From assembly GCA_044229845.1 (NCBI GenBank), contig JBGASG010000001.1, positions 416,001 through 480,000 of the forward strand: a stretch of 64,000 nucleotides of DNA, given 5' to 3'. How positions within the stretch are numbered: position 1 is the first letter of the stretch; every line of letters begins with the position of its first letter. The notes beneath the pieces were generated by a model. It was not told where the DNA came from and did no database searches. It was given only the letters and a program-made list of their open reading frames with translations. Both the position numbers and the translations under genes were made by a program. The stretch is from Candidatus Obscuribacteraceae bacterium (GTDB taxonomy: Bacteria; Cyanobacteriota; Vampirovibrionia; Obscuribacterales; Obscuribacteraceae). Positions 8,455-21,570 of the stretch are shown in pieces.

Positions 8455-8775
8455 ATGGACGACGAGAGATATTTTGCGGGATGCGCATTGCAAGCTTTGA
8501 TCGCGCTCAATCATGGTGACTCGCCTGAGAAGATCGCGAAACAGGCCGTAGCCTATGCGATTGCGATGAAACAAGAACTGGATGCGCGCCGCGGTGGCAG
8601 CCCGTCTCCGTTCGCCGGCGCCCCGGCTCCTGTCGCCAAAGCCGCCGTCTCGGAAGAACCGAATCCGTTTGCGAAGCCGGCTTTGAAGCCCACCGAGCCT
8701 AAGAAATTGACGGAGACGGAGATGGCGAAGGACGCGCTCCTCGAAGAGTACCGCAAGAACAACCCGCGCCGTTAA
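8455..8775 (+). CDS. Small protein with an 'RYFAGCALQAL...AKQAVAYAIAM' motif
   Basis: AGGTGG RBS before the ATG at 8455; 106 aa. Confidence 0.7.
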   Translation: MDDERYFAGCALQALIALNHGDSPEKIAKQAVAYAIAMKQELDARRGGSPSPFAGAPAPVAKAAVSEEPNPFAKPALKPTEPKKLTETEMAKDALLEEYRKNNPRR

Positions 8776-9881
8776 GGCTTAACTTGACCCGCTTCAATTC
8801 GTTTGTGCGCGGGGCGAAGCCATGACCGCATGTCGGTTACTTCTTCGGAACGATTGGTGGCATTGAGAAGTCTCTCGAAGCAATCTAGAGTGCGCGTTGC
8901 TTCTGGATGGTATGGTTGATTTCTATATCGATCGTAGACCAGTCCCAGAAGCGGTTCAATCTCTTGCCCTCGACCAGTAGCTACATACGTCTCCAGTAGC
9001 ATATTTATCGTTCGCGTCGGGGCATACTGCACGAGCAATTCTGAGTGTTGAAGTGAGTTAAGCGACTTAGCACATAGAGCGTCTGACTCTGCCAATCGAT
9101 CTGTTTGTGCGTATAGACATGCGAGGTTCAAGTCACAAGACAGGACTGCGACTGGAATAGCCCACTCGTCCCCCGTTGACACCTTCATGTTTGGGTCTTC
9201 TATGGACTGTTTGACTCCCAGCAACTGCTCTTCCGCGGAATCCAGCTCGCCGAGGGTTAAACGCACGGCGGACAGACGCAGCACCACGAGAGTGGAGTGG
9301 AGCGGACTCACTTCTTTCTTGTGTAGGTCGTAGATTTCTAAGGACTTGACCATCTCTAGTTCGGCTTCGAGGATCCTGTCCTGCAGAAAGTAAGCGTCGC
9401 TGAGCCAAGCATGCAGGGCTCCGATTCCATGGCTGCCTGAGTATCGCGAGTCTTTTGAAGCGCAAAGCAAAGACTCTTTCAGTAGCTTTTCTGCCATCTC
9501 GTAATGCCCCTGCCAGAGTCGCGCTCGGGCGAGTTGCGCCAGCAAGAGGGCGGTTGTTCCTCCTTCGAGCGCGTGAATCGTCTTCAGAATGCGTAGCGCT
9601 GCTCCGTACGCAATCGCTCTATCTGACCAGTTCACTTCCATCGTGCGGGTGCTGAACATTGCCTCCAAAACGTAGTAGCAAATTACAGGCGACATTAACC
9701 AAGTCATGAAGACTCCTGAGGCTGCCCATCCAACAAGTGCAAACGAATTTCCAGGGTAGCAAATGGCTCCCCAAGCGCCCCAGAGTGCAATTGTGGCGAG
9801 CAAAATAGCTAGACCTAAGAGGTGTGAGAGTGTTTCTTTTACCCGATCAAATCGAGTAATTCGCAGTTCGTTGCGTTTCAT
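8772..9881 (-). CDS. Membrane-anchored TPR protein
   Basis: Two N-terminal TM helices followed by TPR-like repeats. Confidence 0.8.
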   Translation of the reverse strand: MKRNELRITRFDRVKETLSHLLGLAILLATIALWGAWGAICYPGNSFALVGWAASGVFMTWLMSPVICYYVLEAMFSTRTMEVNWSDRAIAYGAALRILKTIHALEGGTTALLLAQLARARLWQGHYEMAEKLLKESLLCASKDSRYSGSHGIGALHAWLSDAYFLQDRILEAELEMVKSLEIYDLHKKEVSPLHSTLVVLRLSAVRLTLGELDSAEEQLLGVKQSIEDPNMKVSTGDEWAIPVAVLSCDLNLACLYAQTDRLAESDALCAKSLNSLQHSELLVQYAPTRTINMLLETYVATGRGQEIEPLLGLVYDRYRNQPYHPEATRTLDCFERLLNATNRSEEVTDMRSWLRPAHKRIEAGQVKP

Positions 9882-10024
9882 CGGCTGAGCTTGGTTCTAT
9901 CGACATAGTTGATGTACCCCGAACATGACTGTGACGGGGGACATTGACCGGGGTTTGGGGCGCGGTCATAATGGATTTATCGTACGAATTCCCCAGTACA
10001 GCGCCCATACGGAGAACCTGGTCT

Positions 10025-11356
10025 ATGCGCCTGATTACGTCAGCCAGCCTGTTGTTCAAGCCGCTGCTTGCTCTGTTTGCCGGTCTGGCTGTGGCGAACG
10101 CAGCCACGGCTGCGAATGTGGAGACAATTTCGGGCGCCGATGCCGGCACACAGGCGAAAGCCATCAAATACGGCATTAACTGGGTCAATTCGCTGTCCAA
10201 CGCTGAAGAACTGGCGAAACGCTCGCATAAGCCCATTTTCTGGATGCATATGCTGGGCAACATCGACGGCTACACTTGAAGCGCCGCCAATAGTCTGAGA
10301 GCCGGGTCGCTCTCCAAAGAACCTGTCTACAGCACCCTCCGCAATCGTTTCGTCTGCGGCTACAAGAATATCTATAAAGAGAAGTTCGCGGGCAACTCGG
10401 GTGTGCATCCCATGGAGAGCAGCGCCGTCACCACCACAAATGGTGCCGGGCCGCACAATGTGCAGCTGTTCATTCTCAGTGAGGACGGCACCGTATTGCA
10501 CTGTCTGCCCGGGTATTGGGACCCGAATGATCTGCAGTCAGAGCTCGATCTGGCGCAGAAGTTGAACGATGTCTGGTTGAATAATTCGATTACGCCGACT
10601 CAGAAGATTGCGCAGTTTAAGCAACTGCAAATGCAACACCTGGCTGGGCACTCACCACAGACGGTGGCGCGCAGTCACCTTCAGCATTTTGATGCGCAAT
10701 ATATTGCGAAGCATGCCCATGGACCCGGCGGCGGACTAAATGATGCCATTGCGGAACCGGCACTGCTCGCCAGCTGTCAGTCTGCCTGGAGCGGCGCACC
10801 TAAAGAAGGCATGAGCATGAATGCCCCTATGGAGGCATTCAAAACCACCGACCGCATCATGCACGAGAGAATGTGCAAGTATCCGTTCGTTCCGTACGAA
10901 AACTTCGATGTTGTCTCGTACACAAATTACGGCACGCATTTTTACGACAAGAATGAAAACGAAATGGCAGGCGTCATGCGCCCGGATTTGAAGCGCATGA
11001 ATCTGCATAGGGTCACGCACGATGCAATCGGCGCTCCGCGTTCTGCCGGTGGTGGCAGAGGAAACAAGAATCGCTTCGACCCGGTGAGGAAGTTCTACGA
11101 GCTCTCGAACGAAAACAAATATACCGAAGCCTTGCAGTACGCGTCCAACCTGTGCACAGCCAAGCCCAATGATCCGACTGGCTGGGAATTGCGCGCGGTC
11201 GCCGAATATGGATTGGGCAAGTACGATGAGGCGTATAACGATGCGACCCGTGCAGCTTGGTTGGGAAGCCGTTCGGCGACAAATTCCGACTTACGCAAGA
11301 AAGCGCAGGAACGAATGGGTGCACGCGTGGGCACCCCAAAAGTGTCGCTGCACTGA
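10025..11356 (+). CDS. Putative exported selenoprotein: SelN-like thioredoxin fold plus C-terminal TPR, with an in-frame TGA (Sec85) at 10277-10279
   Basis: Track ORFs 9944-10279 and 10403-11356 are in the same frame, joined by 41 stop-free codons; signal peptide; sequence KPIFWMHMLGNIDGYT*SAANSLRAGSLS; hairpin right after the TGA. Confidence 0.75.
10297..10314 (+). promoter_or_regulatory. Candidate bacterial SECIS hairpin
   Basis: GAGAGC-CGGGTC-GCTCTC: 6-bp stem with a G-rich loop, starting 18 nt after the in-frame TGA. Confidence 0.6.
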
Positions 11357-11521: not shown

Positions 11522-13045
11522 ATGACTGAATCAGCCGGACCAGCTGGGCCGCTGCCTTCTGGCGCGCCCGCTCAGCCCAATCAGCCCAATCTGAACGAAA
11601 AGCCCAGTACGAGTGTCTTCAAACCTGTACTTGTAAAACTACTGATGGTGGCGGGGATTTTTGGATTACTCCAGATCCCTCTTTTTATGATCTTAGGCAC
11701 CATCGAGGAGCGTCAAAACTACAATGTCGAGTACCCGCAGGAGTACGCTGGTCCCGGCGCCGGCAAGCAGTCAGTGATGGGACCGATGCTGACGGTTCCG
11801 TACCACTACAAGCTCACTGAAGAACGTGAGGTTGCTCCCGCGCCGGCAGCTCTGGCTGCCACCACCGGCGATGTGGGTGTTCCTGACAATCCGCCGCCCC
11901 GCAAGACGATTAAGGTGACCCGCACCGCCACCGGATACCTGCACTTCTTTCCCGAAAACCTCAGTGTCAGCGGCAACCTGACACCGGAAGTCCGCGACGG
12001 AGGCAAGTTCAAGAATATCGTCTATTCCACTGCGCTCGACTTCAAAGGCACATTCAAAACCAGCGACTTCGAACGCAAGAAGCTCGACGAAAAAGAAATC
12101 ATGTGGCAGGACGCCTTCATTGCACTGGGCATCTCAGACCTGCGCGGCATCTCTCGCGAAACCACACTTGACTGGTCCGGCAGACAATACAACTTTGTTC
12201 CGGGCGTCAACGGAGTGAAGTCGTTCGATCAAGGACAATACGCGCTTCTCCCTGACGTGAAGAAGGGCGGCACCTATCCGTTTTCATTCACCCTGCATTT
12301 GAATGGCAGTCGTGATCTCAATATCTTCCCGGCAGGCAAGGAGAACGCCATCAACCTGGCGTCTACATGGAGCCAGCCGACGTTCATCGGCGGTTTCCTG
12401 CCTACGAAGAAGACCGTTTCTCAAAAGGGATTCTCGTCGCTCTGGGAAGTCTCATACTTCACGCGCAATATGGCTCAGGTCTGGACTGACACCGAAGTTG
12501 ACATCAAAAACTCCATGGACCAGTACATGGTCGGGGTCACGCTGGCGACGCCGGTGGAGTTCTACCAGTCGGCGATTCGGGCGGTTAAGTACGGCAGTCT
12601 CTTCATCATTATGACCTTTCTCGCTCTGTTCGTATTCGAGATGATGACCAAGGTGAGGATCCACGAGTTTCAATATCTGATGGTGGGTCTGGCGCTCAGC
12701 TTGTTTTTCCTTTTGCTGATCGCCGCCTCCGAATGGATTCCATTTGTCTGGTCGTATGTAATCGCCGCGATTTCGACAATCGTGCAGATCACCTGGTACA
12801 CACAAGCCTTTTCCAAAGCTCGCAGCCCTCAGCTGTGGAAGGTAATGGCTGGCACGCTGACGACGCTCTATGTGTACCTGTACATTCTGTTGCAGCTGGA
12901 AAACTTCTCGCTGGTGGTTGGCGCAATCGGGTTGTTCCTGACCTTGACTCTGGTGCTCTACGCCACACGCAACATCAACTGGTACGCGAGCGTCGTACCG
13001 GGCGAGCCTACGGGTCCACCGAAGGAAGCTCCCTCTCCTGCATAG
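11522..13045 (+). CDS. creD: Inner membrane protein CreD
   Basis: N-terminal TM, periplasmic domain (ISDLRGI, FLP), RAVKYG and IHEFQYLMVGLAL, C-terminal TM bundle ending TRNINWY. Confidence 0.9.
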   Translation: MTESAGPAGPLPSGAPAQPNQPNLNEKPSTSVFKPVLVKLLMVAGIFGLLQIPLFMILGTIEERQNYNVEYPQEYAGPGAGKQSVMGPMLTVPYHYKLTEEREVAPAPAALAATTGDVGVPDNPPPRKTIKVTRTATGYLHFFPENLSVSGNLTPEVRDGGKFKNIVYSTALDFKGTFKTSDFERKKLDEKEIMWQDAFIALGISDLRGISRETTLDWSGRQYNFVPGVNGVKSFDQGQYALLPDVKKGGTYPFSFTLHLNGSRDLNIFPAGKENAINLASTWSQPTFIGGFLPTKKTVSQKGFSSLWEVSYFTRNMAQVWTDTEVDIKNSMDQYMVGVTLATPVEFYQSAIRAVKYGSLFIIMTFLALFVFEMMTKVRIHEFQYLMVGLALSLFFLLLIAASEWIPFVWSYVIAAISTIVQITWYTQAFSKARSPQLWKVMAGTLTTLYVYLYILLQLENFSLVVGAIGLFLTLTLVLYATRNINWYASVVPGEPTGPPKEAPSPA

Positions 13046-19586: not shown

Positions 19587-19952
19587 TCACGTCTGAAACA
19601 GCGGCGCATACTCATCGGACCGCAAGCCGAATGTCCAGGCTACCGCCTCTCTGGCGGTGGTGACAGTGGACGGCACCCTGAGGAAGTAATCGCGATGCCG
19701 CCCATCCGGTTCGGGCGTCGAGTTGACCACGTGCACCAGTTTTTGCACCGGGTCGCCGTCTATCTGATAGAGGGTGCCGCAGTCATCGCTAGCCACCGGA
19801 TAAGCTTTCTTCTCGCGCCAGTAGCGCACCAGTCCGAATCGTTCGGCCATCAGCAATCTGGCGCCGGGGTCAGGCTGGGCGTCGATATCGCCGATGGTGT
19901 CGCCGATTTTCATCCATTTGCGGAGAAACGTTATATCCATAATCCAATCCAC
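19587..19952 (-). CDS. Standalone 'VVNSTPEPDG...YFLRVP...AREAVAWTFG' domain, like the C-terminal region of DUF6745-type proteins
   Basis: Motifs seen directly; GGAG RBS. Confidence 0.75.
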   Translation of the reverse strand: MDWIMDITFLRKWMKIGDTIGDIDAQPDPGARLLMAERFGLVRYWREKKAYPVASDDCGTLYQIDGDPVQKLVHVVNSTPEPDGRHRDYFLRVPSTVTTAREAVAWTFGLRSDEYAPLFQT

Positions 19953-19965
19953 TCCACTTCTCGCG

Positions 19966-20343
19966 CTAATCCATGTATTGCTCCCAGTACGCGTACTGAT
20001 CGTTGCTCTGAACGTCGGTTACCGGAGACGACTTAGTTGCCTCTGGTTCGGGTTTGGACGCTTCTGTGTATTGCTGCTGCTGGATGACGCGATAGACGCC
20101 TTTCGGAATCAGAATCGGATTGTGCTCCTCATGAACAAGTCGTGCGTCCTCTTCGAGCCACAGATACCGTTTTCCGCCGAACTTACTCAGGAGCGCAGCC
20201 GCGCACTGAATGCGGTGCGCGTGTCCAGTGCGCTCACCGACGGCGAGTACGATGTCTGTCCCTTGTGTTTCCGCCAGTGAGAATTGCGGACGCACCACCG
20301 CTTCATCGAGAAGAATGTCTCCCTGTCTGTATTGTCGCTTCAT
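19966..20343 (-). CDS. Conserved His-motif protein (YRQGD...GExTGHxH...HEEH), the usual partner of DUF6745-type genes
   Basis: Motifs seen directly; GGAGG RBS. Confidence 0.8.
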   Translation of the reverse strand: MKRQYRQGDILLDEAVVRPQFSLAETQGTDIVLAVGERTGHAHRIQCAAALLSKFGGKRYLWLEEDARLVHEEHNPILIPKGVYRVIQQQQYTEASKPEPEATKSSPVTDVQSNDQYAYWEQYMD

Positions 20344-20571: not shown

Positions 20572-21570
20572 ATGGAAAGAAACGAGCGGCTGGGCACCAT
20601 CATTAAAGTGATCGCCAATCATCCTGGTATAACGCTCAATCAATTGTGCAAAGAACTCGTGCGCGCCGGAGTTCGTGTCACCGAGCGCACGATTGCCAAA
20701 GATATCGTGCTCTTGAAGCACGAATTTGGATTGCTGCCGCAGCGTGAGCGGCTTCGTCAGGGCTATGTGCTCGAAAACATGTGCACGGTCGGCAAAACTG
20801 AAGTGCCGTTGGTTCTCGATGCGTTGCACGTATTCGGGTTTCGTCTCAGTGATGCTGAAGCTATTGCGCTGATTAATAGAATGCGCAGATGGTTCGGCGG
20901 CGACGACGCCGTAGCGTTGCGCCCGACCCGCACGATTCGTCATCGCACAATCTATAAGCAGGGGCGCCAGGCGAAGCAAATTGAGCAGGCACTGTTTGAG
21001 GCGATCCGCAGCCAGGAGGCGGTTTCTATCACTTACGAAACGCCGCGTCTGCGCAAGCCCCAGCAAGCAACGGGGTATCCGCTGCTGATGGTGTTTCATG
21101 AGCGCGCCTGGTATTGCATCATTCGCGACCAGCAAAGCAATACCTATCGCCCGCGGCGATTGGATCGCATCAAGTCGTGCGCGCCGGCGCCGCGTTCGGT
21201 GCCGGCCAATTCTCATCACCTCAGTGATGTCACCGAAGCTGAATACCTTATAAGTTGCGGGTGGGGAATGACTTTTCCACAAAGCCGAAAAGAACTGGAA
21301 GCGGCACTGGCTGCGCCTCCGATTGTGGTTCGTTTCGACAGCTCGGTGGCCGGCTACATTCTGGAGTCGGTGGACCGCCATCCATTTGGAAAAGTCTCGG
21401 CCAGCAAAGATGGAACCGGAGGGGCGCAAATAGAAATCCGGTTGGCTAATCCACGTGAGTTTGTTTTCTGGGTGCGATCGTTCGGCGCGCATGCACGCAT
21501 CGTCAGCCCGCGTTCTTATATAGATGCGGAAGTCGCCGAACTCAAACGAATGCTGGCGACCTATTCGTGA
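20572..21570 (+). CDS. wHTH-WYL-WCX transcriptional regulator
   Basis: N-terminal HTH (VTERTIAKDI), WYL region (FHERAWYC...RLDRI), C-terminal WVRSFGAHARIVSP. Confidence 0.92.
   Translation: MERNERLGTIIKVIANHPGITLNQLCKELVRAGVRVTERTIAKDIVLLKHEFGLLPQRERLRQGYVLENMCTVGKTEVPLVLDALHVFGFRLSDAEAIALINRMRRWFGGDDAVALRPTRTIRHRTIYKQGRQAKQIEQALFEAIRSQEAVSITYETPRLRKPQQATGYPLLMVFHERAWYCIIRDQQSNTYRPRRLDRIKSCAPAPRSVPANSHHLSDVTEAEYLISCGWGMTFPQSRKELEAALAAPPIVVRFDSSVAGYILESVDRHPFGKVSASKDGTGGAQIEIRLANPREFVFWVRSFGAHARIVSPRSYIDAEVAELKRMLATYS

Follow-up and report, generated by a model that had tools for sequence, protein, structure and literature searches.

The analysed window is a stretch of 64,000 nt from Candidatus Obscuribacteraceae bacterium (GCA_044229845.1, contig JBGASG010000001.1, positions 416,001-480,000, forward strand). 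Within it, one plus-strand frame runs through 84 codons, an internal TGA, 358 further codons and a terminal TGA (Table 1). A sequence-only reading had proposed that two apparently separate ORFs are a single frame interrupted by one TGA, and translation verified the resulting 443-codon reading. Its expectation that gene callers would split the gene was also borne out: the standard ORF list breaks the frame, and among 150 representative homologs, drawn from 1.84 billion proteins, 132 start after the column of the internal TGA (hereafter the Sec column), 2 stop just short of it and 16 cover it, such that 134 of the 150 miss it.

The same reading had allowed for an assembly error, and the TGA holds in reads: four runs, one of DNA and three from RNA libraries, have no variant letter at the locus. 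In all, 14 of 24 listed sequencing runs, some of which may be the source of the assembly, contain 0.98-1.00 of the locus words. The TGA is spanned by contigs from all three RNA-library runs; these contigs cover parts of the gene and, being contigs, cannot show transcription.

The gene is neighboured by a divergent gene for a TPR-containing membrane protein at 8772-9881 (-) and by one for a CreD inner-membrane protein at 11522-13045 (+). No conserved gene neighbourhood was found, the largest neighbour cluster comprising 10 of 80 family loci, and the neighbourhood therefore gives no pointer to substrate or electron donor. Elsewhere in the window, in the region of 19587-20343 (-) and 20572-21570 (+), a regulator-like gene, presumably of the WYL-domain type, has two small genes diverging from it, and this is possibly a defence or stress locus.

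Table 1. Features of the candidate selenoprotein gene (window coordinates)
Feature	Position	Strand	Basis
Sigma-70-like promoter match, 10/12	9944..9972	+	Such matches are about as numerous as expected by chance
GGAG Shine-Dalgarno-like site, 10 nt before ATG	10011..10014	+	Sequence; inference
Predicted selenoprotein CDS, 443 aa, U85 (family A, motif T-U-S-A-[AG]-N-S-L-R)	10025..11356	+	Frame translation and homolog comparison
N-terminus resembling a signal peptide: basic residues first, hydrophobic stretch ~8-24, Ala-x-Ala region; approximate cleavage site	10025..10114	+	Hydropathy
Thioredoxin-fold domain, residues ~48-186, DsbD-gamma/DsbH/AGR-like, homologous to SELENON thioredoxin domain	10166..10582	+	Model, fold matches, profiles
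In-frame TGA, predicted Sec85, N-terminus of active-site helix, register of first Cys in CxxC	10277..10279	+	Homolog columns, model, alignments
Predicted bacterial SECIS hairpin: GAGAGC (10297-10302), loop CGGGTC (10303-10308), GCTCTC (10309-10314)	10297..10314	+	bSECIS constraints, conservation, codon entropy
Family-specific helical domain, residues ~187-312	10583..10960	+	Conservation, model; barely covered by fold matches
TPR-like helical tail, residues ~352-434, accessory	11078..11326	+	Sub-cut-off Pfam scores; 24 of 80 loci

Conservation and decoding of the internal UGA

The sequence-only reading had asked whether homologs carry TGA or Cys at the Sec column. TGA was found in 32 of 32 loci of related genomes (including the window itself and two near-identical copies), in all of the best 80 of 220 GTDB loci and in all of the best 80 of 215 metagenome loci, sets which may overlap one another. 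Near-copies apart, the identity of these loci is 44-65%; pooled, all 192 of the locus readings show this TGA, many of them at about 50% identity. One search pattern carried Cys at the site and hence did not favour TGA. The 16 spanning database proteins have Cys (10), Trp (2), Ala (2), Ser (1) or Pro (1), and in more distant homologs Cys takes this place, as at the sister-family column in 80/80 loci of family C and the Cys form of family B. The homologs with Ser, Ala or Pro (P0016, P0084, P0089, P0090) are possibly non-catalytic, and P0016 is nested inside family A.

A UGA read as Trp or Cys, through an alternative code or a suppressor tRNA, would agree with the Trp at the column of two database proteins, P0003 and P0018. 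P0003, however, differs very little from the protein encoded at locus L038, whose column is TGA, and its Trp is therefore most likely a gene-caller code reading. In addition, the conserved Trp at U-12 is encoded by TGG in 27/27 sequences, the gene itself terminates in TGA, and the UCA tRNA found is tRNA-Sec, all of which leave this reading a very slight probability.

The genome, which is 88% complete, contains SelA, SelB, SelD and tRNA-Sec(UCA), all above cut-off, and thus all of the selA/selB/selC/selD set that the sequence-only reading had suggested looking for; by our reading of its sequence, the SelD has Cys at the catalytic site. Across 41 related genomes, SelA exceeds the cut-off in 26, including all 22 carriers of family A; a TGA member of family A or B occurs in 23 of those 26, and neither family occurs in the 15 SelA-less genomes, a co-occurrence that is a pattern rather than a test, the genomes being kin and not independent. 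The SelA-positive genomes in which neither family A nor family B was found are G017, G028 and G034. Up to six family A copies are present in one genome, and the family was not found at E 1e-20 in 250 other genomes of the phylum.

Bacterial Sec insertion employs a SECIS hairpin just 3' of the UGA, with a G-containing apical loop. The GAGAGC/GCTCTC hairpin with a CGGGTC loop that had been described from the sequence was located (Table 1), its stem beginning 18 nt after the TGA. With a 6-bp stem, a 6-nt loop, G at position 2, a loop that begins 23 nt after the UGA and -8.9 kcal/mol, it satisfies all four constraints of the bSECIS model as set out in the available part of PMC13188914 (stem 4-16 bp, loop 3-9 nt, a G among its first two positions, 16-37 nt from the UGA, MFE <= -7.5). 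Its folding energy is ordinary compared with shuffles (z +0.59, +0.14 and -1.17 in three folding windows), and the support for the hairpin derives from its conservation, not from its folding energy.

Of the 167,694 TGA triplets in the genome, no more than 66 are followed at the exact offset by the same geometry (6-bp stem, 6-nt loop, G at loop position 2), and these include both genome paralogs. Moreover, in 28 non-redundant sequences, from which 4 near-duplicates had been dropped, the entropy of the five hairpin codons is 0-0.81 bits, whereas no value under 0.89 occurs among the 43 remaining conserved degenerate codons, which average 1.68, and the Arg at U+7 is encoded by AGA or AGG in 28/28, as against 125/423 Arg codons overall. 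This comparison shows that the hairpin codons are synonymously frozen, and the predicted SECIS under selection. The full six-pair stem is formed in 74/85 sequences of family A, 6/7 of family B and 14/15 of family D, and in 1/80 Cys-codon homologs, whose amino acids differ over the hairpin, such that their missing stem is not a clean control. Covariation is thin, with mostly wobble changes; a single change on both sides of the stem separates family A from family B.

With TGA conserved in all three locus sets, a conserved SECIS, a complete selABCD set and Cys-bearing homologs, the proposed recoding is upheld, and the in-frame TGA almost certainly encodes selenocysteine at residue 85. The splitting by gene callers and the 134 representatives that do not span the column would also be expected of a real stop, be it between two genes or in a pseudogene. 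Against a true stop or an assembly error stand the 192 concordant readings at such divergence, the position of the break inside one folded domain, the frozen hairpin codons, the SelA co-occurrence and the invariant letters of the four runs, and the probability of either is close to negligible.

Other genes of the genome belong to the same picture. A family A paralog without the TPR-like tail (L021, G000:C1:848070-849104 (-)) has the TGA and a hairpin GAGAGC-CGTGTC-GCTCTC. In a family B paralog (L265, G000:C1:709199-710044 (-)), Cys-Cys replaces Cys-Sec; in L058, near-identical to L265, the six-pair stem is still formed and the loop is changed, as though Sec had recently been converted to Cys in this copy and the SECIS left behind. 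Family A was considered as the sole selenoprotein family of the genome and rejected, as a SelW/Rdx-like gene (G000:C6:190257-190460 (-)) has a C-G-A-U (CxxU) motif, with TGA at 190437-190439 and a similar G-loop hairpin downstream. Two genome-wide selenoprotein scans missed this gene and so are not exhaustive. No in-frame stop was found inside the 3 molybdopterin, 11 AhpC-TSA and 11 Thioredoxin_7 matches of the genome. Several DsbD/DsbH-like proteins are also encoded, none linked to the window gene.

Fold, active site and bacterial relatives

The export signal claimed for the N-terminus is in keeping with a hydropathy peak of 2.0, no later 19-residue window exceeding 0.76, and similar hydrophobic N-termini are seen by eye in the homologs; the protein is very likely exported from the cytoplasm via this predicted signal peptide. 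The thioredoxin fold was likewise recovered. An AF2 model of residues 42-312 from a 28-sequence alignment reached pLDDT 90.9, the single-sequence model of the full protein being unusable (pLDDT 38.6), and Foldseek with VIA-align returned thioredoxin-like matches (3f9u Z 12.0, 2lst 10.7, 3ira 9.9, 3ph9 9.5), the best having an rmsd of 2.4 over 110 aligned residues. Neither the protein nor alignment A1, used as the query of a PDB sequence search, gave a match at E up to 10. Searches of the ESM Atlas with P0003 and P0139 led to unnamed bacterial clusters and thioredoxin-like leads, and a SELENON cluster was not found among these.

In the model, the first core strand is followed by a helix, and U85 lies immediately ahead of this helix. 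The residue before U is T in 28/28 sequences (Y-T-U-S here), in agreement with the earlier remark that no Cys adjoins the Sec, and the motif U-S-A-A/G has no resolving Cys, such that neither a CxxC nor a UxxC dithiol is formed. C111 and C160 are nearly invariant and stand on other strands than the Sec motif, and Asn145 takes the thioredoxin cis-Pro position. Against the DsbH-like proteins of the genome, by our reading, U85 to V101 align without gaps, with U on the first Cys of CxxC; a low-probability hhalign comparison with DsbH-like proteins placed it on the second, and the alignment of Thioredoxin_7 with a starfish protein (below) placed the Sec column on the first. Invariant residues of the helical domain are K194, S217, Q220, F222, D223, D276, H280 and R282. 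The TPR tail described earlier stands as a TPR-like helical tail, but as an accessory one, found in only 24 of 80 loci with Pfam scores below cut-off; beyond this sub-threshold TPR, Pfam and NCBIfam have no family for the protein, and no family of Pfam or NCBIfam 20.0 covers families A, B or D above cut-off.

Weak matches in the related-genome search led to family B of the same order (C-U-T-N-A-R), with TGA in all 7 loci and an equally placed hairpin in which A-U replaces a G-C. Exported family B selenoproteins are predicted in Obscuribacterales at L051-L057, L260-L262, L264 and L266, with a GAGAAC/GTTCTC hairpin. The family B profile retrieved 79 S-C loci and one C-C locus, all 80 with Cys codons and only the C-C locus with the full stem; the S-C loci belong to Acidobacteriota, Myxococcota, Verrucomicrobiota, Planctomycetota, Cyanobacteriota and others. 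The Cys-only family C (L059-L137, L-D-E-E-[LF]-S-C-A-N-S-R) is widespread in Acidobacteriota, Myxococcota, Verrucomicrobiota, Planctomycetota and oxygenic Cyanobacteria, and its representative P0139 matches no Pfam family above cut-off.

Family D emerged from a search for a short motif resembling that of SELENON, with TGA at its end: 15 of the 34 matches were real, and the other 19 were dropped as chance. Its hosts are mostly Planctomycetota, in addition to Myxococcota, Vulcanimicrobiota and a burkholderial bin; its hairpin is GAGAGC-AGGTCT-GCTCTC or a close variant at the family A offset, and its members match a profile built solely from family A, at E 9e-11 to 2e-4. These loci (L218, L223, L226-L228, L231-L233, L243-L249) read S/T-C-U, with three copies in one Myxococcota bin. 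Further Obscuribacterales TGA families (L275-L280) have export-like N-termini; five read x-C-U-x-G-G with a bulged hairpin, and L279 reads G-A-T-U-G with no clear hairpin at the family A offset.

Kinship with selenoprotein N

SELENON is described as an oxidoreductase with Sec in its thioredoxin domain (PMC12839072 and PMC8967691, in their accessible parts), and its human Arg466 is a disease site (PMC8967691, likewise). The comparison with SELENON was made through one protein, the 564-aa starfish P0268 (Patiria miniata, 'EF-hand domain-containing protein' in UniRef), which family D locus L249 retrieved at E 4e-13 among 5.8 billion sequences. In P0268, a membrane anchor and an EF-hand accompany an S-C-C-G motif whose second Cys is followed, four residues on, by Arg; from the anchor, EF-hand and SC[C/U]G motif, which match the anatomy given in the accessible parts of PMC12839072 and PMC8967691, the protein is taken to be of SELENON type. 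L249 matches P0268 at E 8e-39 over ~330 residues, and family D covers its residues 133-528.

The family A profile matches P0268 in the thioredoxin domain only (hhalign 93.4%, E 2.5e-7), and pairwise identity is 25% over 131 aa (E 3e-6), BLASTP covering P0268 411-533 only; the profile match scores 23 bits, equivalent to E 3e-4 at the size of the PDB set, where this profile had no match. Reciprocally, the starfish thioredoxin domain, searched against 49,989 six-frame pieces of the genome, ranked the window gene and its two paralogs as the top 3, the window gene itself scoring E 0.096. In hhalign controls, family A reached 97.9% with family D and 55.8% with the genome's own, generic Thioredoxin_7 proteins, and Thioredoxin_7 reached 7.2% with the starfish protein. 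Judged by these comparisons, the resemblance to selenoprotein N is real homology of the thioredoxin domain. The SelN alignment, claimed to be free of gaps after the Sec, is so against P0268 only from U to about U+24, and has gaps before the GTVxH strand.

A tree of 70 hand-picked rows (16 of family A, 8 B, 10 C, 12 D, 6 E/F, 11 others, P0268 and 6 outgroup) splits all 64 non-outgroup rows from the outgroup (100/99), places P0268 inside family D (100/98) and keeps family A separate, with its own Cys relatives. With P0268 as the sole eukaryote, deep forks left open and long branches meeting, the tree is not read as giving a direction of transfer. Among the best 120 of 247 matches of a profile search with A2, no eukaryotic names were found, and PDB sequence and fold searches returned no SELENON-named structure.

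Family A could be regarded as a true bacterial SELENON ortholog with the same job, since its U aligns to the Sec position, the domains are homologous, and the L-R at U+6/+7 and the GTVxH strand are shared, as are U-x-x-G/A without a resolving Cys and, by inference for family A, an extracytoplasmic location. Nevertheless, no EF-hand match was found in family A, and the type II membrane anchor and the middle domain are missing; it has T-U instead of S-C-U, no SCUG motif and no Arg at U+4; its loop before the Sec is one residue shorter, and Asn stands for the cis-Pro. It adds a C-terminal helical domain and the optional tail, and its SECIS is of the bacterial type inside the CDS, whereas that of SELENON is in the 3'-UTR. 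Together with the far longer match and the tree position of family D, these differences largely refute orthology and leave it a small probability. Of the SelN-like designation, homology of the thioredoxin domain thus stands and orthology does not: on these comparisons, family A is not a SELENON and is the sister of the closer SELENON-like family D, within an exported bacterial SELENON-thioredoxin superfamily, and family D provides the best candidates for bacterial SELENON orthologs.

The available part of the PMC13188914 catalogue, including Table 1, lists no SELENON-like prokaryotic family. Its Trx UxxC (PF00085), thiol:disulfide interchange (PF13098) and Trx7/PDZ (NF041199) selenoproteins share with the window protein the UGA, a bSECIS-type hairpin, the thioredoxin fold and Sec at the first CxxC position, but the window protein lacks a second Cys, is not matched by these models and has a family-specific helical domain. 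The nearest catalogued models, VPGUxxT NF041382/NF041383, are matched weakly by relatives (P0012 at E 0.005 and L053 of family B at E 4e-4; 12-20 bits against cut-offs of 275-350); the window protein has no match and no VPGU. DsbD-gamma, DsbH, DUF255, AGR2-AGR3 and UAS thioredoxin-like proteins, the best structural matches, share a gap-free register from the nucleophile to U+16, but identity is 12-19% and their CxxC is U-S-A-A in family A. Two split thioredoxin-like candidates in a planctomycete appear in Table S9 of PMC4807772, as far as that source was available. A literature search, which covered some sources in part, found no bacterial SelN in print and no work on Obscuribacterales selenoproteins. 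A doctoral thesis reportedly describes a SELENON ortholog in Candidatus Poribacteria, and bacterial SELENON orthologs may thus not be wholly new. As far as these comparisons extend, the window gene is a genuine, unannotated and very likely exported selenoprotein of a new Obscuribacterales family in the SELENON-type thioredoxin superfamily.

Proposed function and its meaning

It is highly probable that the evidence as a whole is best explained by an exported, SelB/SECIS-decoded selenoprotein that acts as a single-selenol thiol oxidoreductase and is sister to family D. In the proposed mechanism, SelB with Sec-tRNA(Sec) would recognize the hairpin 18 nt past the UGA and Sec would be inserted at residue 85, after which the signal peptide would direct the protein out of the cytoplasm. 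The thioredoxin domain would present Sec85 where the active-site helix begins, the place of the attacking Cys in thioredoxins. Since the motif U-S-A-A/G has no second Cys, the protein is most likely a single-selenol enzyme, whose selenolate would attack an envelope disulfide, oxidized cysteine or peroxide and be re-reduced by an outside thiol donor, with the conserved helical domain probably picking the substrate. Such an exported activity with outside recycling is likely in its own right, and the family A protein probably works like the catalytic domain of SELENON.

The main rival accepts the selenoprotein but proposes that the selenol, together with His, Asp and Arg of the helical domain, binds a metal or small ligand without thiol-disulfide exchange. 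The missing resolving Cys, the Asn in place of cis-Pro, the invariant H87, H239, D235 and R241 and near-invariant H164 and H168 (model numbering), and the homologs whose Sec column holds Ser, Ala or Pro would suit it. Yet the Sec occupies the canonical nucleophile position of the thioredoxin fold, and SELENON, with its Sec in such a domain, is described as an oxidoreductase (PMC12839072 and PMC8967691, as above); ligand binding is therefore considered unlikely, and the oxidoreductase reading is preferred.

A broader view, held only tentatively, is that of an uncatalogued bacterial superfamily of exported SELENON-type selenoproteins (A with T-U, B with C-U, D with S-C-U, E/F and the Cys-only C; A, B and D with the SECIS at the same offset), within which animal selenoprotein N may have arisen, with an Obscuribacterales expansion as a leading part of the selenoproteome and SELENON-like single-selenol chemistry in soluble members. 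The finding would add a large selenoprotein family, split by annotation, that is missing from the PMC13188914 catalogue as far as that source was available. If the superfamily reading is true, the soluble bacterial members would be a tractable model of SELENON chemistry.

The finding would also tie bacterial proteins to SELENON, the loss of which causes congenital myopathy. The natural T-U, C-U, C-C and S-C variants would make the role of the Cys beside the Sec testable in soluble proteins, for which family D may serve as the better SELENON model and family A as the natural comparison with no adjacent Cys.
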